20,000 nt of DNA from Mesotaenium endlicherianum (taxonomy: Eukaryota): the NCBI GenBank assembly GCA_009602735.1, contig WELA01000984.1, positions 139,840-159,839 on the forward strand, written 5' to 3'. The notes below the pieces were generated by a model, which was given only the letters and a program-made list of their open reading frames with translations, was not told where the DNA came from and did no database searches. This document shows positions 1 to 20,000 of this stretch, in pieces. The position numbers and the translations under genes are program-made. The stretch's first letter is position 1, and every line of letters begins with the position of its first letter.

Positions 1-830
1 AACACCTTGCGGCGTACCATGACCTTTAGCAGTTCATCAGGGTTGTCCAGGTTTTTCACTTGCTCAATCTCCTGCTTGATGCTGCTGGGCACAACTGGAC
101 TTCTGCCAAACAGCATTTGATAAGGCAAGTAATTCGCCAAAGCAGCTTGCTTGCTAAATCTGTAACCCATAACCAGCCATGGCAGGACCAGATCCCAATC
201 ACGCTTATCATGCTCAAGGCAAAATTTGCGCAAAGCAGACTTAATGGTTTGCACCATCCAATCTGCTAAGACATCTGCTTGTGGGTGATCTCTCAACGTA
301 GTGCGATGGTCAATGAAGCATCTATCCAAGAATTTCTGAAAAGATCCTTGGAACTCAGACCCTTGGTTTGTCAGCAGGTCTGCTAGAGCTCCATGACGTA
401 CAATCACACCGTTGAGGAGCGATTCCGCGGTCCCCAAGCTTTCCTTAGCAGTTAGAGGTACAACCTCTATCCACTTAGAGAAATGCTCAATCATGACCAT
501 AATGTACTTGTTACCTCGCCTGGACTGCGGTAGCTCACCTGCGAGATCGCAGCTTAAATCGGTAGCCTAGGCCCATGATTGGCAAAGGTTGCAGGTGTGG
601 GTGTTGCTGCGTATAACCAGCCTTGACGCGATCGCAGCTTTTGCAGGCCTTGATCACATCCTCACACTGCTGCTTCATGCCCCTCCACCAGTAAGACAGC
701 TCCACAAGACTATATGTCTTCTTGACACCATACTGTCCGGTATTCTCATGCATTTCTTGCACCCGAGCTCGCCTTTTGGTGGGTCTGGCACCAACTTCTC
801 CTGACCAATTTGTTCAATCTTGAAGAGGTT
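1..830 (-). pseudogene. Element A integrase (HHCC zinc finger plus DDE core), frameshifted, truncated by window edge
   Basis: ORF 535-762: MHENTGQYG...YWWRGM...CKSCD...LQPLP. After a frameshift near 555, my translation gives DLAGELPQSRRGNKYIMVMIEHFSKWIEVVP...LLTNQGSEF...HPQADVLADWMVQTIK, open to position 1 (absent from the ORF track because it has no stop). Second catalytic D reads N and the E reads D. Confidence 0.9.
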
Positions 831-1089
831 ATTGCGTTTCCAGCAAAACCTTCTAGCTCGATGGCTCACCTGGTCCTTTTCTTTCATCGATAATCCTTCC
901 ATGTGGACTCCCGTCTTCAGCCAATGCATAGTGGCTTGATGTTTCCAGATCTCTGGAGTGAACAGGGGTAGAGGCTCAGCTTCTCCTGACGCTACCATTC
1001 TAGCCATTTCGGCCAGGCAGGCTGCCAATTCTGCTGGACTGCTTGGATCTTCATCTTCTTGAGCTCCCGTTTTGTTGTCTGCGGATGGG

Positions 1090-1718
1090 TCCGGGTTCTT
1101 GCTGAGTCCATCGGCGTTCTTGAGTATACCTGCTCGATGTATCACTGTCATCTGGTGCTCCTGGAGCTTAAGAGCCCAGCAAGCCAATTTACCAGTGAGG
1201 TCTCTATTCTTCATCAGCCAGAGCAACGGCGAGTGATCTGTGATCAGCGTGAAGGGTCTTCCTCATAGATACTCTCTGAAATGTGCGACAGTTCAAACCA
1301 CTGCCAGCAGCTCTCCTTCGTAGGACGAGTAGTTGCTCTCCGCTCGGTTGTTAGAGCGCGAGGCATAGGCAATGACGTACTCCTCTCTAAGACTTGCGGC
1401 CTGAGTGAGTACTGCACCGATTTTCACACGACTCCAGTCAGTGTGTAGACTGAACAGCTTGGAGTAGTTGGGCGTTCGCAAAACTGGGGCCGTTACCAGC
1501 CGCTTCTTGAGCTCGTTCATGGCCTTCTCCTGGGCTTCCGTCCATACAGAAGGTACGTTCTTTTTCAGGAGTTCTGTCAAGGGTTTAGCAATTTTGCTAT
1601 AGTCCTTCACAAATTTACGATAGTATCCGCTTAGCCCTAACAAGGCTTTCAGCTTAGACACATTCGCCGGTGTAGGTATCTTGTAAATGGCTTCAGTCTT
1701 TACAGCCTGAGGGGACAT
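1090..1718 (-). pseudogene. Element A RT connection plus RNase H
   Basis: LKALLGLSGYYRKFV, LHTDWSRVKIGAVLTQ, YASRSNN..ESNYSSYEGELLAVV, ITDHSPL, NADGLS; in-frame TGA stops at 1293-1295 and 1263-1265. Confidence 0.92.
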
Positions 1719-1739
1719 AGCATTGTTTCCAATCTCATG

Positions 1740-2470
1740 TCATGTGCCTCAAAGAATCTGCACTTTCCAGGGTGCAGCGTCATCTGGAATTTCTCCAGGC
1801 GCTGGAACACTTGTTCCAAGTACTTGAGGTGTTCCTCTATAGACTTGCTGAACACCACTATGTCATCAATGTATGGTTTTGCAAAATCCAGCCCCTCCAG
1901 CACTTTGTCCATAGTCCTCTAAAAGATGGCTGGGGCATTTTTCAGCCCAAACGGCATTATCGTCCATTGCCAAAGTTCCCTTTGAGCCCAGAAACCGGTC
2001 TTACCTCGATCTTTTGTTTTCACAGGGATTTAGTTGAAGCCTTGGCGTAGATCAATGATGCTGAACACCTTCCCGGTGGTAGCAATTGCAAAGATCCGTT
2101 TTGGTGTAGGCATCACATAGCTGTCTGGCTCCGTGTGAAGATTCAGTCGTCTGTAGTCTCCACACATACGAGTGGCTGTATAATTGCCAGCCTCGTCCTT
2201 CTTGGCAACTACTACTGTGGGAGCTCCATGTACTGAGGTTGATTTCTCAATCATGCCAAGCTTGTGCAGCTCCTGGCAAGTTTTATCCACACAGTCCCAT
2301 TCGGTCTGACTGAGCTTATGCGGCCCAAGTCTGACTGGGTTATCAGTAGTTAGTGTGATCTCACACACACTGGCAGTGGTTCTACCAATCTCCTCCTTGG
2401 TAAAAGCAAACGCCTTGCGGTGCTTTTTCAGCAGCCTTTCTACTTGTGCTCTCTGTTGGGCTGAGACCAT
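1740..2470 (-). pseudogene. Element A reverse transcriptase (Ty3/Gypsy type)
   Basis: RMCGDYRRLN, FSIIDLRQGFN*, MPFGLKNAPAIF*, PYIDDIVVFS, HPGKCRF; stops at 2030-2032 and 1919-1921, frameshift near 1740. Confidence 0.95.
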
Positions 2471-2479
2471 TTTTCCAAT

Positions 2480-4700
2480 GGTGCAAACCTCAGTTTCCAG
2501 CTGCTTTTCCCCAACACAGGCATCCAGTAGTTGCTACTTTTTGGGTTCAGGTGGGGTCTTTTTGTCCTCATCCTGGCCTTCGAGCTTTTTTGCCTGATTG
2601 TTAGGAGGTGGAGTGGCAGGCTTCGTAGCTTGCTCCTCCGCTGATTTTAGGCTCGACGGCCTGCTTCCTAGGCTTTTTACCTTTTTCGATGGATCGTCGC
2701 CTCTCGTGTTGAGTGGGGTATGTCAGACGCCTCCGGATGGGCTGCCTCAAGAACCTTTCTTCATCTGCTGCAGTCCAGCTGGTCCCTGTTCCTCCCTCTT
2801 CATGTGGCGGGGGCGGGTTTGGCAAAGGCCACCCTGCTGGATCTGCTATAAGGTCAATTGTCCAACCCCACTTGTGCTCAATAGTAGTAATGCGCGCAAC
2901 GGTCGTGCCAAATTCCTCCCTGGCTGGTGGCGTAATCGTCCATGCTTGTGTCAAAGACTGGGGTCTTTGAGCCGCAGCTAGTTGTGCGTATATAGCATTT
3001 TCTGCTGTCAAGCGGCTTATGGTGCTTCTCAGCTCTACCAATTCCCTTTCAGAAACTGCAGATGTCCTAGGAGCTGAACTGTCCTTCTCCCACGTTCTAG
3101 TGGATGAAGGACGCACCATGGGAATGTGAATTCCCAGTGCCATGGCTTTGCGAATCAAGTCATCCTCTCCTTCTCTCTGCAAAATCTCCAGGATAGGTTG
3201 TGGAGGCGGAGCCATGGTTCCTTTCGGAACCCCTTCTCTCTGAGCTGTTCCCCTATACTTGAGATAACGCATCAGCATCCGCCTGAAAGGTGCATTCCCT
3301 CCCGGGCCACCTTTCTTGGTCTGCTTGCGCGACCGCGAGGATTACCTTGTGTTGGTTCCACCTTAGCGATACAGGCAGCCACTTCCTGCGGCTGTTGTAG
3401 CTGATGGGGGGTAGCTTTTGGTGCTGGAAAACTGGCGGTTGGGGTGCTGGATGTAGGCGACCTCAGATCATTGTATAGATCTGATGGGCTGGGCCCCTCC
3501 ATTATCAAGCGGTCGGCCACCCAGTCATCCGTCCTGAGCTCTTGTCGCTCCAACAGATCCAGCTCTGGGGTAGGAAAACGTGGAATTTCTTCTTGAATCT
3601 CCTCTTCATTGGTGACTGATAGGAGGTCGAACCCTGGAAGGTCTGGCATTTCTGCCTAATCTTCAACTGACTTCTCCACTCCAGGTGGTGGTGGCTCTTC
3701 ATCATTATCTGTGTTGAGCTTCGCCAAGTTGACAATGGCTGATTGCAACGTGCTTGCTGCCTTAGCCACTTCCTTTTTCTTGTGCTGTCGAGCGTCTGCT
3801 TCCAGCAGCTGCTCCATGATCTGCCTTGTAATGGATTCAGCTGTCTGACGGGCTGAACCCTGCTGTTGCCCCTTAGCCTGCGGCTCTGGGCTCATCAAGG
3901 CAGGTGTTGTAGACAATTTCTTGTCCAACTCCTCCTGGCGTTCTTCGAATATCACTTCAAGGCATATGGTCTTGGCAGACCCTCCAGAATCTCCTGAATT
4001 TTGGCTACTCTCTTCAGCCCATTCACCAATATTGCACTGGCGTTCTCGCCCTAATACTTGATTTAGATAATATCCAATTTCTTCAGGCGTTGGCTTAGGG
4101 GCCTTCTTCTCAGACTCTTCTGACATGTCTTGTAACGGCGCTTGCTCTGGTGAAGACGATAGATACTTTTGGTTAGCTTCCCAGCTACTTGAGCTTTCCT
4201 GCCAGTAGTCTCCGTGCCCAGCTGCTCTTGGGCTGAGGTGGGTATCATACCGTGATCTGGTATCTTCTGGAGTCTCCTCACGCCTTGATGTTGTGGCTTC
4301 GGAAGGTGGGCTCCCAAATATCTAGCTGTGAGTGGCGTTTCTCATAGGTGATGGGGTGTCCTGCGTATCGTCTTTTGTGCTTGGCAGCGGCGTTGCCTGC
4401 TCAGGCGCCTGGTCCCCCATGGGTGTATCCTCTCTTTCCAGAGATGCTTGTAATTCATCGGTCCGGTTATCGATCCGATCCAACAGATCCTGGCATCTCA
4501 TCAATTCAGCCACCCTAGCTACCCTGAATGCTCTGTCTCTGGCAGCTTCCGCTGCGTCTCTTTGCAAATCGTATTCTTCTTGTTGCTGATGTGCCGTCCT
4601 GATAGCCCTTTGATTAGATGTTGGCACCACATGGACCCCAATTGTTACTGGTCTTGGCCTCGGCATAGGCTTGTCAGTGAAGGTCAACTGCTGCCACGTC
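2480..4700 (-). pseudogene. Element A long DNMT-RT spacer (~2.2 kb), low-complexity/coiled-coil-like coding sequence of unknown function
   Basis: Chain of same-strand ORFs (4322-4828, 4063-4317, 3656-4126, 3272-3649, 2601-3278) rich in E/Q/P/R, no recognisable domain. Confidence 0.55.
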
Positions 4701-5656
4701 ATGATTGTTTCCACTAACCAAGTCATAAAGTGCTGCCCAGACATGTTGCTGAAAATCTTTGACCCTACAGCACCGGCTATATGCCGAGCTATGGTGTCAA
4801 GTATTCCAAGGTATTTGCCCTTCTCCACCGCAGTAGGCTCTTTCTAAACGGCGTCTCTTTCATGTATGTCTTTGACCATTCTTGGTCCACCTTCTATGAA
4901 GGCTCGAGATCTTGGATATGCTATGAAGGTTGGCAGTACCAACCTTGGCTGACCTAGTTCGTTGATGACACACTGTGGATAGGAATCCCTCCTAGTCACT
5001 AGTCTGGTATGCACCACCAGCGCCTCTTCCACTGTCAATGCCGTTGGTGATCGCCGTGTAATTTCCTCCATCTCTCTCAGGACCTCAATAGACATGCCGT
5101 TGGTCCAAAATATTCTGGCCCTATGGGATAAGCCTCCGTGCTTGGCGTCGTTGATTAGCACATGATGGCCCAAAGTGGAGTCAAAAATCAGCCATGGTTC
5201 TCCCGGCTTCATCTGCTTGTAATCCATTCCTGGATGCACATTCTCAATCACAAACACTGGTGGGTAGTAGTGCTGTCGTTCCCGCAGCATGCTGATGGTT
5301 TTTACCATCCATCCCCAGTATTGTGCTCGTAGATCACTGAATCCCCTCCTGTTTCCAGCTTGAGAAACCGGTTGACAAGGAAATCCAGCAAAGATCCAGT
5401 CAATCCTGTAGCCATACAGGCCTTCAGGCTTCACATCAATAATGTTGCCTCCGGCGATGCGCTCGACATTGCTATATGCGGGCACCAACCCTTTAAAATG
5501 ATGCATTTGTCGCATCTGACTCATGACTTCTCTGAATGCTAGAAAAGCGTGGGCATCATTGTCCACATACAGGACTCTGGCCACCTGTATTCCTTGCTGG
5601 ATCAATGCTATGGTCCCAGACCCAAGTTCGGCAAATAATTCCAATACCACTACTCC
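4700..5656 (-). pseudogene. Element A C5 cytosine DNA methyltransferase domain (DNMT3/Dcm-like)
   Basis: Motif I VLELFAELGSG (FxGxG with G>E), II YVDND, III GNIIDV, IV IFAGFPCQPVSQAG (PCQ at 5372-5380), VI FVIENV, VIII SHRARIFWTN; divergent IX/X-like region continues in frame past the TAG at 4844-4846. Confidence 0.92.
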
Positions 5657-5994
5657 CCTTTTGCGAAAAGGATCTTCCATCCTGACAATGCCTTGCGGCA
5701 GCGGCTCAACTCCAGGCATCAGATTTGCAATGGAGGTAACTGGGTAGGGTACTGGCAGCAACTCTTGCGGGCCGCGGTCCCTATTACTCAGAGTTTCCAG
5801 CTGCTTCATGATCCGAGGTTGCCATACCAAGGGTGTTGGCATGTTGATGCTCGTATAGCCTTCCTCTTCTTGCTTCATGATGTTGTCGCAGGCTTCTGGG
5901 TACCTGTCATTAACACAGCAGTCTAGCAGTCCGTAGTTTGCTTCTCCTGTGCAAACCATCTTCACATGAATTTCTCCTTCCGGCTGCCGATCTG

Positions 5995-6340
5995 TTGACC
6001 GGTAAGTCATCCTCTGATTCCGCAGATCAATGACCAAACCCAAGGGAATCAGTGCTTCTGTTCCAAAGAGAACATCATAGTTCTCTGCCTCCGTCACTGT
6101 GCACTCCATAAGTAGTGATGCCTCTTCAGGTTCCCCTGGATTTACTGTGTCTTTCACAGGCTTGCGGGTAATCCCACAAGACTTTGAGACTTGTCCTGAG
6201 GCAATTCTCAATTGGAAAGGACTCTCTTTTAGGTCCCTTGCCGTCAATCCTAGAGCTTTCACAGCTCGCTTTCCCAGGATGACTGGCTGTGCGCCTGTAT
6301 TCAACAGAATGTTGGGAGCTGCCCAGTTGTTGAAGATTAA
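5995..6340 (-). pseudogene. Element A retropepsin-like aspartic protease
   Basis: ILLNTGAQPVILG (DTG>NTG at 6293-6301) and YDVLFGTEAL; aligns with the element C protease MFDTGAQPVLIS...FDVLLGQDVL; same open frame as the DNMT (ORF 4844-6490). Confidence 0.88.
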
Positions 6341-6470
6341 TGCACCCTCCCTATTCTGCACTCTCACGGTGCTGAAATTGGTGAGCAATGAGGCGCTATT
6401 TGCACCTTCCTCAGCTATATCCAGCTGCTGTCTGGCTTCTTCAACCGTGAATGGGTAAGTGATATGCAAA

Positions 6471-7781
6471 TCAGCGAGGTAAAGGAGCATGCTGGATCCG
6501 GTGTTCCACCAGGGCCTTCAGCTTCTCCAGCGAAAAACGAAATGTCTTACGCGTCCCGGGCCTGGCTTGTCGTAGCTGCGAGATCTCATTTTCATCTAGA
6601 GTGATCCGGAAAGTCTGAGGAAGCTTCCCAGCATTCCTTGGCACCAGACGATTGTGATCTGCTTGCTCGGCAGCCGTTGCGTCCACAGCCATTTCAGGCA
6701 TCAGCTTCTCGCCTTTGCAGACGGTCTTTTCTGCAAGATCTGCATCATAGTAGACATTGGGTGCGTTTAGTTTCGCAAATTGAGCTTTCAACTCAGCGAT
6801 TTCTGCACTCATAGCTTCATACTGCTGGTTACCCTTGGGGTTACCAGAGCCACCCTTTTCTTTCTTTTCTTTCTTGTCTGCCTCTTTCATGGCAACATTT
6901 GCCCATGGCGGTTTTAAATTTGGGTTCTTAGACCAGCACTCATCTTCTGAATGTCCCTTCTTGCTGCAATGTGCACATATCTGCGCCTTGCTAGCAGATA
7001 GTTACTTAGCATCTAGGTACGGACAATCCCTCTTTTGATGTCTTGATTTCTCGCAATTCCAACAGCTCTTTGCTGTTTCAGCAATGTTGGCATGCTTAGC
7101 AAACTTATTGAAAGACCCGCTCTTTTTCTTAAACTGAAAATTAGAGCTGTTGGCCTTAGGCGGAGAGGATTCCTCCCTCCTCTCAGGAGCCATAAGCGTC
7201 CTGGAAGCCTCTTTGTACCACACTTTACCTTCTTCGACATTGCGTGCTATTTCAGCCGCCTCGTCGATGTTCCAGTTAATCCCGTGCTTTGCGGACAGAT
7301 GTGGCTTGACTTCACGATCTGTTTCCTTGCCCAAGCACAACAGAAACTTGTCAGCCACTATTTTGGGCTCGTATATGTTTGCCTTTTTGGCGAGGTCTAC
7401 CAATCTAGATTTAACCTCCAGGACTGTCTCGTTCTTCTGACGAACAAAATGCACATAACGGTGCACCTTAAGACTGCGATCCTATGGGAATCGTGCTTCA
7501 AGTAACTTAAAGAAACGGCACAGACAATGCTCGGAGTCTAGCTGGTCATCCCCACCCTCCATATCCTTACGACAGCTAGCCAAGGCTTGCGCATGGCTTG
7601 CCTCTGTCGTAGCGCTATCGCCTTGCTGACCATGAAGAGGTGCAGTTCTGCGTGTTACTTGTTCCTGAGCATTAGCAATCTTTACAGACAGTTCTGCACA
7701 CACCTTTCGCAACTCTGCGACAGAGCTGGCATCATCGTTCTGAGTAGCAGCCCTTTGCTAACCCTCAGTGAGTTGCCTCAT
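6471..7781 (-). pseudogene. Element A gag (retrotransposon gag core plus two CCHC zinc knuckles), 5'-truncated
   Basis: ORFs 7482-7712, 7002-7466 and 6471-6890 share one frame separated by stops; knuckles CWNCEKSRHQKRDC and CAHCSKKGHSEDEC at 6936-7064; HFVRQKNETVLEVKSRL aligns with element C HFFRRKNETIRMLYRRL. Confidence 0.88.
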
Positions 7782-8521
7782 TGAAAGGGGCAGAGTGCCC
7801 TAGTGGAAGCGTAGTGATTCACGAGGAAAAGAACTAGTTGCAATCATACTAAAGAGTGCAGCGGCATATCAATAAGAAAACTTGAGAAAATTACTTGACA
7901 TTTTGATTAGCAAGAAACCGCTCACAAATGATGTAGGATGGAAGGCCTTGTCATTACAAACCCGTAGAAATTTACAGAAGTGAAAACTGATAAGAAACAA
8001 AGAAGTTATGCCTATTTAAAATTTTCTGCCTAAGTGCTCCTCCCTAGGAGGAAGCTACGGATTTTCCTAAGTGTTCGCCAAATCGTCCCTTCTAGAATAT
8101 TTGTGAGTAAGCCAGATCAGTCTAATCTGACGTTTCGGGCCGAATTGACGTCCACATACATGCATCGACATTACTAGAATATTCTATCTCAGACGCGCTA
8201 GGCTAAATTGAAACTTCTAGGTAAATCGACCTAGTCGACACTCAGCGTCAGCCGAACGCGAAGGTTCGAGTTTATTCTAACGGGCCAGATCGCTCAACGC
8301 TGTCGGTCAATCCGACGGTCGCGCTCACCGCGAATTAAGGACAGTCGTCAACCAACCTCAAAACCAATTAAACTTCAGAAATCCGTAACTCTCTCAATAC
8401 TTGACCAAATTCGATGAACTTTATATCAAAATGACCACAAAACTGCACTCTACACTAATATATAATCAAAACATACTTTTATGAAACTCAAAAATGCACT
8501 TTATAAACCTATGACCTTACA
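7782..8521 (-). repeat. Putative 3' LTR of element B (~740 bp)
   Basis: Starts TGTAAGG 3 nt after the PPT and ends CCTTTCA (6/7 terminal inverted repeat); non-coding, AT-rich, contains a TATA-like box. Distal boundary uncertain; partner LTR not in the window. Confidence 0.65.
8011..8020 (-). promoter_or_regulatory. TATA-like box in element B LTR
   Basis: TTTAAATAGG on the minus strand followed by a pyrimidine-rich tract, typical of a plant LTR U3/R junction. Confidence 0.45.
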
Positions 8522-8524
8522 TCA

Positions 8525-8535
8525 TCCCCCTCCTC
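8525..8535 (-). other. Polypurine tract (PPT) of element B
   Basis: Minus strand GAGGAGGGGGA-tga-TGTAAGG immediately after the chromodomain. Confidence 0.85.
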
Positions 8536-8559
8536 AAGATGCGACGTCCTCGACGCATT

Positions 8560-8721
8560 CTGCAGATAACGTCTCAACTTACTCTTACAATGAGTCAAGT
8601 TGGCCTCTGGCTCCCAAGTGTTGTCGTCCGCATGGTAGCCTTTCCACTTGACCAGATACTCTTGGACAAATCGTTGACCTCGCTTGACTCGTCGATCGCC
8701 GACAATCGCCTCCACTTCATA
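8560..8721 (-). other. Chromodomain at the integrase C-terminus with intact aromatic cage (group I type)
   Basis: YEVEAIVGDR...EYLVKWKGYHADDNTWEPEANL. Confidence 0.93.
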
Positions 8722-10862
8722 CTCCAATACATCATCGATCTCGACCGGTGGTGGCGGTGTAGGTAGTCGTCCTGGATGTCCTTCATTCGGGTCAACGTAT
8801 GGCCGTAGACAACTGACATGGAACACATCATGGATACGCCAGCCTGAAGGAAGTTCCAACTTGTAGGCCACTGGATTCACCTGCTTGAGCACTACAAAGG
8901 GACCTGTAAACCGTGCCCGCAGTTTCCTCTTGCCTGTGAAAGGTAGGTTCTCTGTTGACAAGTGTACTTTGTCGCCCACATGGAATGTCACTTCCCTCCG
9001 ATGCTTGTTGGCATACTTGACCTGTTCCTCCTGTGCCTTCCGAATACACGTCTTTGCCATATNTGCCATATCCCATCTGCTCCATGAAAGCTTGTGTAGT
9101 AGGAACCTGAGTCTCCTTGGCCCTCTCCAACAAGATGTTCCCTGGATGATATACTTCTTGTCCATAAACCATAGCAAATGGTGACTGCTTGGTCGATCCC
9201 TGCATGCTGTTGTTGTAGGCAAACTCCAATCCTGGCAGCTTCTTGTCCCACTCTAAAGGGTCCTCCATAGTGAAACTCCTGAGCACCTCTTGCAGAGTTC
9301 TGTTGAGCCTCTCACTCTGCCCGTCTGTCTGGGGTGATAGGAAGTGCTCATACTCAACTTGGTCCCCATCAAAGTAAACAATGACCGCCAGAAGTTGCTA
9401 GTAAACCTTGGATCCCGATCTGAAACAATCACCTTCGGCAACCCATGTAGCCTGAAAATATGATCAAAGAATAGCCGTGCCACATCTGCTGCCGTAGAAG
9501 TCTCCTTCATGGGAATGAAGTGAGCCATCTTGCTGAGTCTGTCAGACACAACCCATACTGCATCGTGCCCTTGACCACTGACTGGTAACGATGTGATGAA
9601 GTCCATAGCAATCTGCTCCCAAGGATACTCTGGAATAGGCAGGGGCCGCAATGTACCTCCCTTCTTTTGATTTGGTGTCTTGTTTCTCTGGCACGCATCG
9701 CAACTCCTGATCCACTCCTCGATGTCCTTGTCCATACTTCTCCAGTAGTATTCCCGCTTCAGCACGCTTCCCGTCTTCTTGCTTCCAAAGTGTCCAGCAT
9801 ATAAGCAGTCATGATGCTCCGCAAGTAGTAAGTCTCGTAGCTCCTTGATGTCAGGTACCACCACTCTGTTGAAATCACCATAATACCATATGCCGTCCTT
9901 CTTCTGCATACTCGCGTTGAACTCAGCTGCTCCACCATCAGCAAACTCGGGGTCCTCCTCATAACCTCTTTGAAGCTTCTCCTTGAAGTCCATATTCTCC
10001 TTGATGATTGAGACAGCTGCAAGGTCACACCTCCTGGATAAAGCGTCTGCAGGGTTGATCTTCCCAGGTAAGTACTCAATCTTGTGGTCGAACTGTTGCA
10101 GAAACTCCATCCACCTTGCTTGTCTTGGTGTCAACGTCGGCTGCGTCATAAACTTCTCCAAGCTCTTGTGGTCGGTCTTGATGAACACCTTCCGTCCGTC
10201 CACATAACATCGCCAAATCCTCAAAGCCTGGATAATAGCCAACATCTCTCGCTCGTGTGCTGCATAGTTCTGCTCCGCAGGACTCAACTTCCTGCTCTCA
10301 TATGCCACAGGCTGCAACCCTTTGCCCTGGTCCTGGAGAAGAATGGCCCCCACTGCAAAGTTTGATGCGTATGTGATGATGGTGAAAGGAAGCTCTGGAC
10401 TGGCGGTTGCCAACACAGGTGCCTGTGTCAATAACTCCTTAATCCTCTCAAATGCTTGCTGCTCCTTGTCACCCCATAGCCACTTCTCCTGCTTCTTCAA
10501 CATGTCCGTGAGCGGTGCACACACCTTGGCAAATCCTTCAATGAAACGTCGATAATAATTGGCCGTGCCGAGGAAACTCCTGAGTTGATGAATATCAGCA
10601 AGTACCGGCCAATCTCCGACTGCTTGCACCTTCTTCTGCTCCACCTTGACTCCTTCAGCTCCCACTATGTGTCCAAGAAACTCGACTTCCTTGAGACAGA
10701 AGTCGCACTTGCTCATCTTCCCATATAACTTTTGATCTCTCAAGACCTCCAACACCTTCCTCAGATGTTCCACATGCTCTTCCAAGGTCTTTGAATAGAT
10801 CAGGATGTTGTCCACAAATACCACCACAAACTGGTCCAAGTAGGGTCTGAAGATACTTGTCA

Positions 10863-11704
10863 TGATTTATTGAGTCGAGGTTGTCGTATAAAAACCAAGC
10901 TCCACATGTGCGGAACATCAACCTAGGAAGGCCGACTTTGCATTGACTTTACGCATTTGTATGTTGACCTTTTCTTGATTTCCAAGTCACCAACGTGTAG
11001 CGCGTCGAAGCATCTTCCGAATGGCACCAATTTTGCGTCATTTGGTCAAGTATCGAGCGAGATAGGTGCGATCTAGTCCGCGTCACCTACCGGTCCCTAG
11101 CGGATCCTCACCAAAGGGCAATTTGTGTTTCAATGTGCACATTCTTGCCTATTCGTGACCCCCTAAAACCCCTAGCTTGTGCGCACAAATCCGCGAGCCC
11201 CTTAGCCTACATAAGCTTTGCATTTCCATAGTATATGTGCATCATTGAGGCTATAACTTGGTGACTGCATCACCTACTCCTAGAGGAAGCTTCCTCAATT
11301 TCCAGATCCACTTTTGAGGCGCTATCTAGGTAGAATCACCCAAGGTAAGCTCGGCCAATGAGGGACACGTAGCATATCCTACGCACCTTGCTTTGATTGG
11401 TTTGAGTTATGCTTAGCCTATAGGAGTGCTAGTACATGCCTTGTACACATTAGTGGACATAGGAGAGCCTCCTAGAGTGACTACATGCATTGGATCCGCC
11501 GCATACCCCGCCGGATTTCCAGGAGTATAAGTACTAGAGATGTCCCTAGAAGAGACATCTTTTAGAAGTCCATTATGCCAGGTGTAAGTAACAGAGATTA
11601 TCAGTAAAGCTTACACTTTTATCTCTTGTGTTTTCAGGACCACTTAGTTACTCTCTTGTGAAAAGCAAGCCCTCCGGGCTTCCAGTCACTTGAAGAATTT
11701 CACA
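10863..11704 (+). repeat. Putative 5' LTR of element C
   Basis: Begins TG at the point where the element B RT homology breaks; non-coding; TATA-like TATAAGTA at 11526-11533; candidate end ...TTTCACA followed by AG-TGG; shares a spaced motif with the LTR of B. Confidence 0.55.
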
Positions 11705-11706
11705 AG

Positions 11707-11718
11707 TGGTGAGCAAAG
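11707..11718 (+). other. Possible primer binding site (TGGTGAGCAAAG), primer tRNA unidentified
   Basis: CA-nn-TGG geometry ~200 nt upstream of the gag start; does not match the canonical tRNA-Met-i PBS TGGTATCAGAGC. Confidence 0.3.
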
Positions 11719-11906
11719 TCACAACTTAAGCCCTTGCCATAGGACTACTCTGAAGATCATGATGTGCTTCCAGTGATCTTTTGGGCCATACTTCATTAGT
11801 TGTTTTCCTACCAGATTACGGTCTTGAGGTGCTCACTCTGGAGAGTACACATTCCTTACTTCTAAAAGATCTCTCTTTGCCTGCAAGCAATAAGAACCTT
11901 CAGCGG

Positions 11907-13049
11907 ATGCCTACCCGTAGTGGGCTTTCTTATCAGCCATACTACAAAGGGGTTAGTGGAGAAAACTCAGACTCAGATCTCAGCACTATCACTGAACCCG
12001 CCAAAGAAGAGCAACCTGCTCTCCAGCACACAGCAGTTGCTTCTGAGCCATCTCCCCAGTGGGCTCACTACGATTTCTGGTATCCCATGGCAGGTGACCA
12101 CGAGGTCAAGACTGACAGGTCTGCCTACCGCTTCAGCGGTAGGCCAGGTACCTGTAATCTAGAAGATACCATCTTGGAGTTTCAGGCTGACTTCGCGGCT
12201 GCAAAGCTCAAGACACCCACGCTGACTAAGCGCGACGTCTTCGACACGCTTATGCGCTACCTCTCGCACAAGGCCCGCGACACCTTCCGTGAGAAGGAGG
12301 CCGAGCTCCGGACCCGCACTGAGCTTATGGGTGACCCACCAGTGGCGACCCTGCTAGCTGATCCAGTGCAAGCCTTCTGGAACATCCTGAAGACAGAATT
12401 CCAGGCTGCAACTGAAGAGAAGGTGTACGAGCTGCACCATTTCTTCCGACGCAAGAACGAGACTATCCGCATGTTGTACCGCCGCTTGGTGCACCTCCGC
12501 CGCGATGTCGGCACTGTCACTGACCGGGAGGCCGCGGAGATCTTCTTGCGCGCCGTTGAGCCGCGTCTGAGGAAGAGGGCCGTAGTCCCCCTCATCGACC
12601 GCCACGATTCAGAGTATTCTCTGGAGCAGGCCTACCTCTCCGTTGAGAAGCAGAGCTTGGCCGCCGCACGGAGCAACATTATCGATCGTGTGGGCTTAGA
12701 ATCCACGGGCGTGCTCGAGGAGGCCTAAGTGCTGCCGTCTTCTACGACGCGCACGACGCCTGCCCGCCAGCCCCAGTCGCAGCAGCAGCAGCCTCAGCGC
12801 TCTCAGCTGCCCCAGCAGACGCAGCAGCGCGGAGCTACGCGTGGCCGCATTTCCATGGCTGCCACTATGAGCGATCCCTGCTGGTCCTGCGGGAAGACGG
12901 GCCACTCACACCAGAACTGCACTCTCGCGCAGAATGGCAAGCCCGGCGACTGCACCTATTGTGGCAAGGCCGGCCACCTGCAGATCGTTTGTCTGCAAAA
13001 GAAGCGCGACGTCGAGAACGGACGCGCTCGCGACGGCCCTACACCTTGA
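11907..13049 (+). pseudogene. Element C gag with two CCHC zinc knuckles
   Basis: Likely start MPTRSG at 11907; YRFSGRPG, RRKNETIRMLYRRL; knuckles CWSCGKTGHSHQNC and CTYCGKAGHLQIVC at 12879-12992; in-frame stops at 12726-12728 and 13047-13049. Confidence 0.88.
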
Positions 13050-14083
13050 GCAAGACAGCGAGGCGCACGCAACCCTCGTACGGGTGGCCGCCTCGCAATG
13101 ACAGCAGCTACGGCCACGACGGACGCCGCATTGATGCCTGGAGCTGACTATTGCAGCTTCGACGACGTCAGCGACGCCCTCGTGGTGGCCAACGCAGAGA
13201 TTGCTAGACTCCGTGGCCTCATCGACGTTGATAACTATGACGCGTGCGGAGCACTCCTCGCGTCGGCTTCACCGTCCTATGCCACGGCACTGACAGCTGG
13301 CGCACGCACAGCTTCAGCGCACGCATCAGGCTCAGCAGCAGCGCCGCAGCCCCGCGCACGTCCGCGTCACGACGTAGCGTCCGCTGCCAGAGCCGCAGGC
13401 GCCAGCACCGGCAGCTCTGCTAGCCCTGTGCGCACCGCTCTGACAGCGGTCAGCAGCGACAGTCGAAGTCCCGACAAACTGCGGGATGGCAGGCTGCACG
13501 ACTGCGCGGTTGCGCCATCTCCCGGCGCAAGCTCGCGCGCACGCGGGCCAGTCTGCGCGCCAGCCGAGGCCTCGACAGAGTCCCTGGCTTGCGCTTCCCT
13601 GCTGGCACCAGCAGGCCTCCCGTCAGCCCGCGTAGCAACAGCTGGCAGGCAGGGACGGGGGCGGCGTGCACAGCTACAGCTGGTCCGGCCGCAGCCTCCC
13701 GCCCGTGCGGCACGCCCGTGCGCAGCTCTGCGCACAGGCAGGGACAGCAGGTCCCCGCTGGTTGCTGCAGACAGCAGGCTCCAGCAGAATCCGCCACGTG
13801 GCACGTGCACGGCAGGCGGGGCCNACCCTCGGTCAGCAGGGAAGGGTCCTGACTGCGCTGTGCGGCCGGATCGCCGGCAAAAGCGCCGACAGCGCACCCG
13901 CAGCTGCGCACATCCAGGCTCAGCCCTTGCCGCGCACATACCGCCACTTGGCGCGCGCGCATGGCCCGGCTCAGCCCGCGCTGATCGGACGGCCGCAACG
14001 TCTCTCCGCAGTCAGGGGCGGGCTATCCCAACCGCTCTGTGCTGCCAGACCTCCGTGCGGGGTCCTGCCAACGCACGTACCGG

Positions 14084-14666
14084 TGTGCGCAGCCAGGGCT
14101 TAAACCCTGGTTGCACACAATACCCCAGCCCCGACGCATTTTGCGCCACCGGGGCTTCGGCGGGCGTACGCACCAGGGTGGGGGCACGACAAAGCTCGTC
14201 CGGGGCAGCCGAAGACGGCGCCGACACCACGCTGGCAATTCGACCTCGCAGCCCCAGGAGCGACCAGGGCCCGCCACCTGGCAGCCCCCCAGCAGCCGAC
14301 GTCACGCCGGCAGCGGCAGCCGTGACTGCAACTGTGCCTCCAATCGGCACGCATCTGCCGGTTGCGATCGACAGTAGCGGTCAAGGGGGGGGGCCCTTGA
14401 CTGCGCCGTACGAACGAGGCACAAAGCCGGCTGCCGACGCCATAAGTACGGCCGCGCTCAGCCAGGGGCTGTCAACTGGCACGCTTGCGTTGCCACGTGG
14501 CGCGTGCGCACGGCCCAGCACGCCCCGAGAGGACCGGGCAAACTCGGCTGATGTTTTCAGCTCGGGGGCGGCACTCCCGACTGCGCCACGCGGTCGCATG
14601 TCCGATCGCGGTGCCGACGGCCCGCGCACGGCTGCGCACAGCCAGGGCCTAAACCCTGGCTGCGCA
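14084..14666. repeat. Two dispersed copies (14084-14119, 14633-14666) of an inverted-repeat unit CAGCCAGGG-N6-CCCTGG(C/T)TG
   Basis: Read directly; both translate as SQGLNPGC(T/A)Q in ORF 13098-15047. Confidence 0.8.
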
Positions 14667-15069
14667 CAAAACCCCGGCAGCAACCCAACGCAGGCTGCCG
14701 GGGGGTCAGTTAGCCCACGCATCGGGGGGAGGTCGAACGGAGGAGACACCGCGGCTGCCCCGTTCCTTCCGCATCCTAGAGCCCTCCACGACCTCAGCAG
14801 AGCCGACGCCACATGCGCTCGCTTCGCCTATGACGACGGTGCAGCTCAACGTCGAGGTCATCTCTCTAGCACTGCACCGCATGCCGGCGGTCTCCTTTGC
14901 AGAGCTCGGTGTCTCCATGGAGGCAACGAGGCACGCCGCTCAGCTGATGCTCCAATCGCGCAGAGCCACGCTGCGCACCGCCGCCAGGAGACCGACGGCC
15001 GATGCCGCCACCGCGGTGCAATCCGCGCCCGCGCGTCCTGCGCATGAGCGCAGGATGATCAGCACTCCT

Positions 15070-15460
15070 AACGCCACGTTTTTGGATAATTCGCAAGGGA
15101 TCGTGCTTGTCAACACCCAGGCGCCGCAGCGCATCATGTTCGACACAGGCGCGCAGCCGGTTCTCATCAGCCTCCGCTACTTCCGTCAGCTGGGACTCTC
15201 TTCCGCCGACTTGGAGGACTCTCCGACGCGCATTAACACCGCCACCGGCACGTCCGAGACCGTCGCCGGCCGCACGTGGTTGGCGCTACTGTTCACTCTG
15301 CGCCCAGGCACGGCAGACGAGACAACCATCCATCGGCACGCACTCGTCACTCCTTCCGAGTCCTTCGATGTGCTCCTAGGGCAGGACGTGCTCTTTCCCA
15401 TTGGCGCCGCGGTCAACAACTGGGCGGAGCGCGTCTTCTATCGTCCCGACTGGAGGACAG
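15070..15460 (+). pseudogene. Element C aspartic protease
   Basis: RIMFDTGAQPVLIS (DTG at 15142-15150), INTATG flap, FDVLLGQDVL. Confidence 0.92.
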
Positions 15461-16489
15461 GGGGGACGCACACCGCATCCTTGCCCCTTGACATTTTTGA
15501 TCGCCGCCCAGCAGTGTCCGCTCTTTAAGGCTTCATGGGGCTGGGCGATGGCCGGCCAGTGGTCAAGACCGATAAGGACGGGCCCGAGGACAAGGAGATC
15601 TCTGTGGGGGTAGACCTGCTCGAGCCACAGGACGAAAAGTCGGACCTACCTAGTGCCGAGCTCCACCTCACGCCGCAGCAGCAGGCGGATGTCCTGGCAG
15701 CCCAGGCCAGGGAGCAGATCCGCATCTCCACTGCCCACAGCGCGATGATGCGGCAGATGGTGGACGATGCTACTGAGGCCCTCGCCACGGCCAGCATAGC
15801 CATCGCTACCGCCGCCCTTGCTCGCGGTGCGGCCACAGCGCCTACGGCTCATCAGGGGGTCTCGGCCTCTCGCGGCGAGCCGTCCGCGCGCGAACCGACG
15901 TCCGCGTTCACCACGACGTGCCTGTTGGCGTGGCCATTCAGTACAGTATGGACTCTCAGCCGCCCCCTCACGACGCCTCGCATCAGACCGGCGAGACCTG
16001 GCCTCGCACCACGGCATCCAAGGACGAGGTCATGCGGCAGGCAGCTTCTCCTGGCAGATCCGACGACCAGTCCCTCAAGAGTGAGGAGGAGACACAGTGG
16101 GAGCGACTGCCAAAAGCATTTGTCGAGGAACTCAGCGCGGAGCCCTTGCCAGCTGCGCCTACGGCACGCAGGCAGCGCGCACCTACTGGTCCGCTCGGCT
16201 TCAGCGCACCCAGCCAGCCCATGACACACGACTGGCCCAGCAGGGCTCGCACTGACGGCGCTGGTCCCAGCCGTCCAGTGTCACACGACTGCTCGACAAG
16301 CCACGAGTGTCGCCGCATTGCGCATTTGTTTGCAACAAGCCGGGCTGCGGCGGCCTCCTCTAGCGCTGGCACACACTCCATACAGCAGCCAGCGCCCAGG
16401 CTCAGCGTCCGCGAGCTACCCCGCACGACCCCGTCTATCTGCGCCCATCTGACCTACGCACATCGCACTAGGCCGACCATCGGGCCCGC

Positions 16490-16706
16490 TCGAGAGACCA
16501 CTCCTCTCCGCGAGACGAGCCGCTCCCGATCGCTCACACCCCTTTGCGAGACGCGAGAGGTGACTCCCCTCCGCGAGACGCGAGCCCGCTCCATCACGCC
16601 GCCCTACGACGACAGGGAGCGCACGCCTCCTTACGACGACACGCGGGCCCGCGGGGACACGCCGCCATACGACGACACTCGAGACCGACGCCGCACTCCG
16701 CCCTTC
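16490..16706 (+). repeat. Degenerate coding tandem repeats (RExTPLRET-like x3; TPPYDD x3)
   Basis: ORF 15918-16976 translation RETTPLRET..LTPLCETREVTPLRET..TPPYDD..TPPYDD..TPPYDD..TPPF. Confidence 0.75.
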
Positions 16707-17486
16707 CGGCCCCTCTCAGCTGGCGACGACGCTCAGTCTTCTTTCGAGGCGCATTTTGTGATGTTGGCCCCTACAGCTCCGCGCGCCAGCGTCCCTCGCA
16801 GCCACATCGCTGGCGACGGTCCCTCCGGGCTACCTCCTCCCAAGGTGGCCCGCACCGACAGCAGGCCGCCCAATCGCCACCCATCTACGGCCGCCGCACG
16901 CACACGGCTCATGCCTAGTCTCCGACAGCCCCGAGACGTGCCCGTCCCACGAGGGCAGCCCCGGCCGCGAGTCTAGCTGGCCCCTCGCCGGTTAGTTTGG
17001 TCCCCGCAGGAGGTCGACAGCTCCGAGCGCTCCGTCTGCACAGTCCCCTCTGCAAACATGCGCGCACGCCAGCGGGCCTACTTCGACCCGCACCCCTACT
17101 TGACTCAGCGTCCCGTTCTCGACCGGCTGGCCCACACGGCCTTGCACCAGACTGACCACGCCCAGCGCGACAGGTGACAGCAGCTGTGCGTGGCCTCGGC
17201 CCGACGTCAGGCCCGTGCTGTCTCTCCGATAGCCCTCCAGGATGCGCGCCTGCGGTGGCGCACCTACCAGGACCACGCACGGGAGGAGCGTCCGCAGCCG
17301 CTCACTGACCGCATCCCCAGCCTTACGCGTGACTACGCAGACCGTGCTGTGGCCGCCCTCCGCATGGCGCCACATCAGCACAGCGCCGAGGGTACCTTCC
17401 CGCCGCTCGCTCAGCCCGGCACCCCCGCAATGGGGTGTCGCCCACTTCTGACTCCTATCTGCGCAGACGCTCTAGACGAGCGGCCC

Positions 17487-18455
17487 GGCGGCATCGTCCT
17501 CATCGAGCTCTTCGCCTGTATTGCCACCGGGTTGCTCGCGACCTTACAGGTCGGCATCCCGGTGCGCCGCTACGTCTATGTCGATCCCCATCCTGAGGCC
17601 TAGCAGGTGGCCCGTCGGCAGATGGCGTTGTGCCACGAGCGGTTCCTAGACCTCCTTCCCGCGCACGCATTCTGCCGCGCTCAGACAGACTGGCCCATGG
17701 ACATCCGCGACATCACCGTCGAGCATGTCACCCGCCTTGGGCCCATTGACCTCGTCATTGCCGGTTGGGAGTGCCAGGGCTTCTCCAGAGCCGGGCGTGG
17801 CAGGGCGCTCAGCAATCCCCGCACGGCCCTCTTCTGGCACTTGCTCCGCGTCCTCAACATTATTGAGGATCGCCAGCCGCCGCACACACTCGCGTGGGTC
17901 CTGGAGAACGTGGCCGCGCGCCACGATCACCGACCCGATGTTAGCGCCGACTTCGCTCTTTGTAGCAGCTACGTCGGCCGCGAGGCCGTCATTGACGCTG
18001 CCCAGATTGGTTCCTTCGCGCACCGCGTCCACGCCTACTTCACGAACCTGGCAATGCCAGGTACTCTCGAGGCGTTGGCCGCCTCTCATCAACGTCACCC
18101 ACGAACCGTCGACTCCATCCTCGATGCCCCTTGTCTGGCCCAGCGCGTGACTGCACTACCACATCCGTCCAAGGCGCAGTGTGAGGTCCTGCATGACGTC
18201 ACTCGCGCGCTGCCGACTTTTGTCAGCCGCTACGACAGCGACGCCTTCGTCGGAGATCAGCGCGGGATGGTCATCGACCTGGAGACTGGCATGTTTGACA
18301 GGCCGCGCCCTGCGGAGATGGAGCGTGCCATGGGCTTCCCGCCGCATCTCACACAGGTGGATGGTCTCACTGAGGTGAACCGCATTCGCCTCTTGGGGCA
18401 CGCGATTGACGCCAACGTCCTCACGTGGATTCTGCTGCAAACGCAGGCCTTGGCG
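17487..18455 (+). pseudogene. Element C C5 cytosine DNA methyltransferase domain, DNMT3-like
   Basis: I: LIELFACIATGLL..GIPVRRYVYVD; III-IV: DIRDITVEHVTRLGPIDLVIAGWECQGFS (Cys at 17772-17774); VI: WVLENV (ENV at 17904-17912); VIII: IDAAQIGSFAHRVHAYFTNL; IX-X: EMERAMGFPPHLT..RIRLLGHAID; single in-frame TAG at 17601-17603. Confidence 0.95.
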
Positions 18456-18679
18456 CCTCTCTACGCCGCAGCCCGGCATCCCGAGCTGCCTCGGCCTGCC
18501 GATGATGTGGACGATGACTCCACCGACGATGACAATCAGGCCCCGCCCGGCACGACGTGGCATCCTTAGCGCGCAGGGCCTGCACCGCAGGCGCGCGCGC
18601 GCCCTCCCTCCCCACCGCCGCGCAGGGAGGACTCTGGTTCGCTGGGGGGGGGACGGCGGAGAGAGGAGTCCTCACAGCA

Positions 18680-18719
18680 ACCCAGGGAGTCCCGGTCACC
18701 CAGGGAGTCCCGGTCACCC
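18680..18719 (+). repeat. Perfect 18-bp tandem duplication (ACCCAGGGAGTCCCGGTC x2 + ACCC)
   Basis: Read directly from the sequence, in the DNMT-RT linker. Confidence 0.9.
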
Positions 18720-18909
18720 TTTCTTTTTCCTCGCTCGCAGGCAGACGGTGCCAGGCAGCTGGCCGCAGCTGCCACGATGCAGGTACCCGCGGCAGGCCGA
18801 GCGCCAGCCGCTGCAGGGCAGGTGACACCTGCAGCACCACAGTCTACCCCAGCGGCAAGACGGGAGACTCCAACTGCAAGCCAGGCGACGCCACCAGCTC
18901 CACCAACAT

Positions 18910-19749
18910 GGAAGCTGGGGGGGACACTCACCAAGGCGCAGGCTGCACAGTTGACGGCACTGCTGGACGGGAGGCGCAGCACCAGCTTTGCCAGCGGCAT
19001 GCACGATCTCGGGCGCTATAGGGGGAACCCCATGCGGATTACTCTCACGTCGCAGGAGCCCGTTTTCCTGAAGCGTTATCGCTACAGCCACTTCGAGGAT
19101 GGCTTGATCAGCGCGCAGACAGGCAAGCTGGAGGACAGCCGGCTCATTTGGGAGTCCTCCTCTTGCTATGCCGCACCCACGGTCATGCCAGCCAAGAAGG
19201 ATGCCTCGGGCAACTGGTCCGAGAAGAGGATGTGCGGTGACTATCGTAGGCTAAACGAGGTCACCGAGCAGGACAGATATCCTATGCCGACGCCTGACGA
19301 GATCTTTGACGACATTGGCACGTGCACTTGGTTCTCAGTGCTGGATCTGCGTCAGGGCTTCAACCAGATTCCCATCGCCGAGGAGGACCAGCATAAGACG
19401 GCGTTCTGGGGAGCACAGCGGCTCTACGAGTGGGTGGTGATGCCGTTCGGGTTGAAGAACGCGCCAGCTACCTTTCAGAGGGTGATGGATAAGGAGCTGG
19501 TCGGGCTATCCTTTGCCCGATGCTACATCGATGACGTGCTCGTCTTCAGTCAGACGTTTGAGGAGCACGTGGTGCACATCACTGCCGTCCTGGACCGCTT
19601 GGAGGCCGCTGGGCTCAAGTGCCATCCAGGCAAGTGCACTTTTGGGACCCGCGAGGTGGAGTACCTTGGCCACCTGCTCTTCTCCAGCGGCTTGGCACCC
19701 CAGCTGGCGAAGATCTCGGCCATCACAGGCATCCCACCTCCTACAGATC
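18910..19749 (+). CDS. Element C reverse transcriptase; core domain uninterrupted but truncated at the start of the connection region
   Basis: KRMCGDYRRLN, DRYPMP, FSVLDLRQGFNQ, MPFGLKNAPATFQR, CYIDDVLVFS, HPGKCTF, YLGH; homology stops after IPPPTD. Confidence 0.95.
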
Positions 19750-20000
19750 TGTAGTAAAACAGATAGATAAAGTACTTAGTAAAACAGAATAGTTTATCTA
19801 TTCAAGACAAGGATCTTTGAACACAAGTGGTAGCTTCTTGAAAGAGAGATGGCTTCTTGAAAGTTAATATATTTCTGGATTTTGGCAAGTACAAGAGTGA
19901 TTCTGGAATGTCTTTCTATGTTCTAGCTCTTGTTTATATACTTGCTACATAAGTAATTTCTAGGAAGGTGTATGTTGATGTGTTGGCACCCAACACATCC
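19750..20000 (-). repeat. Element D: probable LTR of a further retrotransposon inserted into element C
   Basis: Abrupt switch from GC-rich pol to AT-rich non-coding DNA starting TGTAG (..CTACA end on the minus strand); minus-strand TATATAAA at 19933-19940. Confidence 0.55.

Follow-up and report, generated by a model that had tools for sequence, protein, structure and literature searches.

The closest described relatives of the locus examined here are retrotransposons that carry a DNMT3-type cytosine methyltransferase. KnitGypsy-Dnmt3 of Klebsormidium nitens is given in a figure legend with a DIRS-like succession of terminal repeats and coding region, A-coding-B-A-B, without a mechanism (de Mendoza et al. 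2018, PMC5890265; here and below, statements on the literature refer to the accessible part of each source). We analysed a stretch of 20,000 nt from Mesotaenium endlicherianum (assembly GCA_009602735.1, contig WELA01000984.1, positions 139,840 to 159,839 of the forward strand), hereafter called the window. It is a nest of long terminal repeat (LTR) elements, labelled A, B and C, plus another repeat. Element A (10858-19749, plus strand) is a Gypsy element with a DNMT3-like DNA methyltransferase (DNMT) domain between its protease (PR) and its reverse transcriptase (RT), and it is truncated by a nested high-copy repeat at 19750.

Element A is a new family of the published Gypsy-DNMT3 kind. Like KnitGypsy-Dnmt3, it has an intronless, unpermuted domain of the DNMT3 clade in a Gypsy polyprotein, and its relatives are under purifying selection and have the A-coding-B-A-B layout; unlike KnitGypsy-Dnmt3, it belongs to a different family and likely to a different host (PMC5890265). 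In the accessible portion of that main text, KnitGypsy-Dnmt3 appears as one lineage with few copies, and neither target duplications nor an internal palindrome, self-priming or a stop read through in translation are mentioned; the end structure discussed below may already stand in the main supplement. SymbioDIRS-Dnmt3 of Symbiodinium similarly has a DNMT3-type domain, the A-coding-B-A-B layout and two DNMT positions in related elements. It encodes a DIRS RT and a tyrosine recombinase, whereas element A has a Gypsy RT, and its relatives have in addition a DDE integrase (IN), TG..CA ends and 4-bp duplications (PMC5890265). The EpiLTRs of Cymbomonas and Euglena are also LTR elements with a DNMT; they differ in that the enzyme is DNMT4-related and accompanied by DAM and a chromodomain, and they are called distinct from the streptophyte Gypsy-DNMT3 elements (bioRxiv 10.64898/2026.05.21.726589). 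A literature search that covered few subscription journals and not Repbase returned no paper beyond PMC5890265 on Gypsy-DNMT3 elements, or on split or permuted LTRs in Gypsy elements. The first-pass annotation of the window, made from the sequence alone, had presented the element as rare and perhaps undescribed. That claim does not hold: in kind it matches KnitGypsy-Dnmt3 (PMC5890265), and it has hundreds of divergent relatives. The published record was one algal case whose repeat layout had no explanation; the present data turn it into a large lineage with two DNMT positions. The breadth of this lineage and a specific, testable replication route are what is added here.

The motifs of a C5 cytosine methyltransferase all lie in one plus-strand frame of element A, namely ELF at 17505, YVD at 17577, DIRDI at 17700, GPIDLVI at 17739, GWECQ with the catalytic Cys at 17763-17777, ENV at 17904, AHR at 18018, EMERAMGF at 18315 and LLGHA at 18390. 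Thus, the ordered motifs that the first-pass annotation had located between the DTG protease and a YIDD RT were all found in place (Table 1), and their order, I to X, is unpermuted as it had claimed. A hidden Markov model search identified DNA_methylase PF00145 (E 3e-9, 37 bits for a cut-off of 22). Sequence searches of the PDB with the domain of element A retrieved DNMT3A (1.7e-14), DNMT3C (2.4e-14) and DNMT3B (2e-12), followed by the weaker DRM-type enzymes (1.8e-6), DNMT2 (5.5e-6) and HhaI (2e-3), and a profile of 11 sequences widened the gap (4e-25 for DNMT3A versus 2e-12 and weaker). An AlphaFold model of the domain (pLDDT 72, pTM 0.77) was submitted to Foldseek, and the top matches listed were all DNMT3A, DNMT3B or DNMT3C, with a best E of 2.7e-16. 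The proposed affinity with DNMT3 is therefore borne out, the best matches in sequence and in fold being DNMT3A/B. The PC dipeptide reads EC in element A; in the relatives, too, EC outnumbers PC (106 versus 69 of 202 domains).

This copy of element A is dead. It is not one open frame, with stops at 12726, 13047, 15526, 16974, 17175, 17601 and 18567 in addition to frame changes. Its DNMT domain fails a test for an intact frame and catalytic residues: the stop at 17601-17603 lies inside it, the third residue of motif I departs from 130 of 132 matched domains, and motif VIII lacks its second Arg. Because of the stop inside the domain, the copy is incapable of methylating cDNA.

Part of the stretch was detected in 20 of the 24 listed sequencing runs, under five organism codes, and four runs, three of DNA and one of RNA, were compared closely. 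All three DNA runs, from three organisms, cover the DNMT region by near-identical sequence. Run X5 provides an ungapped contig over the DNMT (16935-18386, 54 differences) and run X6 two of them (16323-17641 and 17663-18417); in run X1, the summed depth over the DNMT is about that over the RT, and the 5' repeat of element A has 2-3 times the depth of the internal part. No single contig spanning PR to RT was found in the runs compared. The DNMT is thus a trait of the family and not a one-off capture, the outcome that the first-pass annotation had named as refuting. The window differs from the other copies mostly by C-to-T and G-to-A decay. Since the stop at 17175-17177 and the indel at 15885 are among these differences, they are private to the window. 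In a set of 29 C-to-T/G-to-A transitions (from 40 of 527 rows), 13 are in CG, 10 in CHG and 6 in CHH context, and CG and CHG transitions together exceed their share of sites (p 0.004).

The relatives are numerous. A metagenome scan yielded 464 confirmed stretches, of which 80 were kept, and many of them are copies of a few families. PR upstream and/or RT downstream of the DNMT was found in 67 of these 80 loci; the DNMT lies between RNase H (RH) and IN in 11, and 2 are too short to tell. A profile search collected 469 clusters at E<=1e-30, and most of the long ones read RT-RH-DNMT-IN, often with a PHD finger. This RH-DNMT-IN sister group (L040-L042, L061, L064, L069, L072-L074, L078 and L080; P0025, P0031, P0032, P0039, P0073 and P0084) is large, often has its PHD finger at the C terminus and shares the internal palindrome described below; Pfam misses the DNMT in several members. 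The first-pass annotation had suggested looking for one uninterrupted frame, and the relatives provide it, P0091 being a single open gag-PR-DNMT-RT-RH-IN frame; in element A, stops and frame changes break it. Named matches were a protein labelled Mesvir1, which we take to be from Mesostigma viride, and Closterium sp. NIES-54. In IMG/VR, only weak phage-type methyltransferases were found (24 loci, best E 2e-8; outside the trees and with short coverage), and no viral donor was seen.

Trees were built that contained no host DNMT3 and no Klebsormidium sequence. In the DNMT tree (157 rows), the two DNMT positions need one change, and element A groups with the PR-DNMT-RT elements on a long branch. 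For the RT tree, random sampling reduced the RH-DNMT-IN rows from 55 to 22 and the chromovirus rows from 34 to 14; the RH-DNMT-IN group is on one side of a branch (100/99), element A again groups with the PR-DNMT-RT elements, and elements A and B fall outside the chromovirus group. The ratio of nonsynonymous to synonymous substitution rates (dN/dS) was measured among relatives, comparisons with element A being saturated. Over the DNMT, it is 0.09-0.19 in eight of nine unsaturated pairs and 0.35 in the closest pair, which indicates purifying selection, as the earlier proposal required. Two pairs were measurable for the RT (0.04 and 0.15). The catalytic Cys, EN and RxR are retained in most of the 202 domains, across lineages with saturated synonymous sites.

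The layout of the ends was established on relatives, the 3' repeats of element A being outside the window; the 5' half, which the window includes, matches that of the relatives. Complete relatives are A-coding-B-A-B or A-coding-B elements, with a polypurine tract (PPT) between the coding region and B. All eight independent insertions with both ends start with TGTCATG and finish with CA, and 4-bp target duplications are exact in six of them and have one mismatch in a seventh. TGTCAYG occurs once on the plus strand of element A, at its first nucleotide. Repeat B follows directly after the G-run PPT and does not start with TG. The joint between B1 and A2 is a palindrome, CA-nn-TG, with a spacer fixed at 2 nt. 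A pattern search found this palindrome after IN in 26 of the 37 loci with enough tail (25 on inspection, several being the same insertion), in both architectures, versus 3 hits in 320 kb of control coding sequence. At the A2/B2 joint, the 2 nt from just before the primer site meet the 2 nt from just after the PPT, and some copies have a shortened joint. Altogether, this is likely to be the pattern of a two-LTR circle opened internally, in which the ends of a linear B-A...B-A cDNA would be joined and the circle cut at the palindrome. In the two-LTR-circle model of Panganiban and Temin (as told in PMC11054761), integrase similarly acts on a circle, at a joint that forms a CA..TG palindrome; unlike in that model, the joint here lies within the LTR, contains a spacer of 2 nt and is deduced from inserted copies.

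Two other identities were considered. Tyrosine-recombinase elements of the DIRS/Ngaro type are ruled out by the rve integrase in element B and the relatives and by the 4-bp duplications, and Troyka elements, known only from animals, with CG..CG ends and 3-bp duplications (PMC12440569), by the TG..CA ends and the 4-bp duplications. As a separate observation, locus L043 harbours a second B-A-B block (9282-9967, minus strand), close to the first but in the reverse orientation, which belongs to a further copy of that family.

No tRNA primer site was found behind the 5' repeat of element A; a self-complementary site is in its place (Table 1). None of 200 shuffles reached the score of the arm pair, and the left arm closes the minimum free energy fold of the leader. 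The z-score of the whole-leader fold is modest (-1.8, with 4 of 100 shuffles as good), the arm-specific test being the stronger one. The arms pair at 13-15 of 15 positions in 12 of the 16 relatives with a defined repeat end and at 10-12 positions in the other 4, and a TATA box is present 32-33 nt upstream in 12 of the 16. Between the arms of the window and those of L003 there are four compensatory changes and a one-sided one. Element A and its relatives are thus likely to use Tf1-type self-priming, with the RNA start predicted from the TATA spacing. Like Tf1/Sushi and the plant Tcn1 elements, they have no tRNA site, and a primer site behind the 5' repeat is complementary to the predicted RNA start; Tf1/Sushi and Tcn1 are chromoviruses with ordinary LTRs and no DNMT (PMC6317226), a group outside which elements A and B fall in the RT tree.

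Three families (L023/L016/L030/L032/L068, L026 and L050/L054/L056) have a TAG in frame between DNMT and RT, its position being constant, and the nucleotides after it read CAR-YYA or CAR-YYC. UAG-CAR-YYA is the leaky-stop context of plant viruses. These families are candidates for a strategy in which the DNMT would belong to the Gag-level product and readthrough would be needed for RT-RH-IN. In the L003 family and in P0091, one frame without the stop covers everything, and the TAG of element A has no CAR-YY context. No paper on the readthrough motif was found in a search in which subscription journals were mostly not covered.

Element A is thus one of many copies of a Gypsy-DNMT3 family, dead and truncated. 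Taken together, these data make it probable, in our view, that active members of this family self-prime, circularise their cDNA and open an LTR-internal palindrome with their integrase, and that they would methylate the cDNA with DNMT3 before insertion. The RNA would start about 30 nt past the TATA box, fold onto the site behind repeat A and prime synthesis as in Tf1. The true LTR would be B+A, so that the linear cDNA would have no TG at its left end. Its two ends would then be joined, with small losses, leaving 2 nt by the primer site and 2 nt by the PPT at the A2/B2 joint, and the DDE integrase would cut the internal palindrome with a 2-nt stagger to generate CA-3' ends. These last three steps are drawn from the relatives, because the window does not include the 3' end of element A, and for element A itself we infer the circle route by extension. 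The DNMT would be loaded into the particle, in Gag-like amounts in the leaky-stop families, and would methylate the circle de novo, and the new copy would enter the genome pre-marked. The methylation context would most likely be CG, by analogy with SymbioDIRS-Dnmt3, whose enzymes methylate CG in yeast (PMC5890265). The Gypsy and DIRS elements that carry DNMT3 also share the split-repeat layout, which suggests that the enzyme acts on a circular DNA intermediate. If true, this would be a natural DDE retroelement that integrates from a circle, a model proposed and then dropped for retroviruses, and the route is testable. More tentatively, and with somewhat less conviction than doubt, we envisage a widespread, old Gypsy lineage of green plants and algae, self-primed, with an obligatory two-LTR circle that a DDE integrase opens at the LTR-internal palindrome and a particle-borne DNMT3 methylating it, in which family A would be a GC-rich, CpG-undepleted branch beside a second lineage in one genome.

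Several observations weigh against the self-primed circle route with cDNA methylation. The CpG observed/expected ratio of the DNMT region is 1.07 in element A, versus 0.26-0.71 in 15 relatives and about 0.5 in elements B and C; family A therefore bears no self-methylation footprint. The Klebsormidium enzyme gave no methylation in yeast, a result called inconclusive by its authors (PMC5890265), and the circle-precursor model was refuted for retroviruses, in which linear DNA is the precursor (PMC11054761). In the RNA run, of which 6% was read, reads were found over the 5' repeat of element A and none over the DNMT. The PR-DNMT-RT group was recovered in 62% of the bootstrap RT trees, which makes its monophyly weak, and element A, on its long branch, is at most 41% identical to any relative in the DNMT and 57% in the RT. 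One of the eight complete relatives has no target duplication. Lastly, the first 8 nt of element A (10858-10865) are identical to the target sequence in the RT of element C, so that a target duplication is not scorable there; the match may be a scar of microhomology or recombination, or the element may by chance have inserted where the target resembled its own terminus.

Ordinary linear integration, with the DNMT still acting on cDNA, is an unlikely alternative. The A-B-A-B arrangement would then come from another route, for instance by strand transfer to a linear A...B-A-B cDNA or from head-to-tail dimers. This would agree with the proven role of linear DNA in retroviruses (PMC11054761), and no circle was observed; the A-coding-B forms with target duplications (L052 and L070) might also have arisen by B-B recombination after insertion. 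Against linear integration, it is B, and no TG end, that adjoins the PPT, and both flanking dinucleotides are kept at the A2/B2 joint, which varies by small losses, whereas the spacer of the B1/A2 palindrome is constant at 2 nt. Among the 33 loci with these repeats, the forms A-B-A-coding-B and B-A-coding were not seen, which neither linear integration nor the circle fully explains.

We regard as slightly less likely again that the DNMT is kept for a non-catalytic role or for one that does not involve cDNA: it might bind DNA, contribute to particle structure, guide the choice of target, or methylate RNA or the chromatin of the host. The lack of CpG depletion in family A, the negative yeast test of the Klebsormidium enzyme (PMC5890265) and the EC in place of PC in many members are in keeping with such a role, as are the members that escape Pfam and the degenerate motifs IX-X of element B. 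Nevertheless, the catalytic Cys, EN and RxR persist in most domains despite saturated synonymous sites, and the related DIRS-borne DNMT3 enzymes methylate CG (PMC5890265). That a piece of a host DNMT3 was captured once, in this copy, or that the assembly is at fault, as the broken copy and the missing PR-to-RT contig might have suggested, is refuted by the intronless domain at the same position in 67 loci and in element B, by the contigs from three organisms that tile the region, by purifying selection and by the open frame of P0091.

The hundreds of silent DNMT3 copies borne by transposable elements also matter for counts of host DNMT3 genes in seed-free plants and algae. The features of the window are collected in Table 1.

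Table 1. Features of the 20,000-nt window (positions are those of the window).
Feature	Position	Strand	Remarks
TATA-like box	11526..11533	+	Lies 29 nt before the left-arm core (15 nt)
Left arm, predicted RNA 5' end and predicted self-primer	11550..11569	+	Inverted repeat
Right arm, predicted primer-binding site	11858..11877	+	Complementary to left arm, 19/20
5' terminal repeat 'A' of element A	10858..11858	+	Starts TGTCATG, ends just before primer site
gag, two zinc knuckles (12879, 12951)	11907..13049	+	Stops 12726 and 13047 in element A; gag matches in relative loci
Long GC-rich, low-complexity coding linker	13050..15047	+	No Pfam match
Aspartic protease	15031..15525	+	DTG 15142-15150; Pfam gag-asp_proteas PF13975, E 5e-9
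Second GC-rich linker, short direct repeats	15529..17486	+	No Pfam match
DNMT3-like C5 cytosine methyltransferase with motifs I-X in unpermuted order (dead copy)	17487..18455	+	
In-frame TAG between DNMT and RT of element A	18567..18569	+	Decay or programmed stop
Reverse transcriptase, cut off at 19749	18906..19749	+	YIDD 19524-19535; Pfam RVT_1 PF00078, E 7e-32
Element B, second divergent Gypsy, gag-PR-DNMT-long spacer-RT-RH-IN, decayed; neither end in window	1..7757	-	
Element C, chromovirus pol (RT end, RH, IN, chromodomain)	8512..10865	-	Pfam; element A nested in it
Terminal part of another high-copy repeat of LTR type, nested in element A; starts TG	19750..20000		Depth jump and loose ends at 19749/19750 in 4/4 runs

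The first-pass annotation had placed a Gypsy element at 11907..19749. Its Gypsy identity stands; its start does not, since the element begins at 10858 and 11907 is where gag opens, with MPTRSG. In element A, zf-CCHC is recognised by Pfam (E 6e-4), and PR and RT flank the DNMT in one frame series. As the other repeat interrupts element A at 19750, the window shows neither its RNase H nor its integrase. The linkers are its most variable part among copies. They also contain a 30-nt inverted repeat (14084-14113/14639-14668), and short direct repeats are found at 16491-16677. The GC content of element A is 0.60-0.73 at 11907-18455, with no CpG depletion, versus 0.49 and a CpG observed/expected ratio of about 0.5 in the neighbourhood; family A may have come recently from a host rich in GC.

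Element B went unnoticed in the first-pass annotation, and so did the predicted self-priming at the 5' end and the permutation of the ends in this lineage. The DNMT of element B (~5660-4700, minus strand) has GFPCQ at 5386 and ENV at 5245, and the RT of element B has YIDD at 1873; Pfam detects PF00145 (E 1e-12), RH and rve. A spacer of ~1.8 kb separates DNMT and RT. The DNMT is 26% identical to that of element A, and the RT groups with that of the relative L003 (99/93) and not with that of element A; there are therefore two DNMT-Gypsy lineages in one genome.

Element A is inserted within the RT of the chromovirus element C, in which no DNMT was seen. The best relatives of element C are at most ~50% identical over the full length, and the named ones are mostly from Closterium; as to the host, this says little more than that its genome is not a well-annotated one. 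Read by eye, its chromodomain retains the aromatic-cage residues, and chromodomains with such residues are described as limited to non-seed plants (PMC6317226). Together with the excess of CG and CHG transitions in element A, this points to a seed-free streptophyte as the likely host. A 25-nt motif (88%) is common to the repeat of element C (8386-8410) and the 5' repeat of element A (11040-11064), in the same sense.

Other copies of element A run on differently at 19750. The nested repeat that starts there is also inserted elsewhere in family A, as indicated in run X1 by joints of 10893 and of 11372 to 19750.

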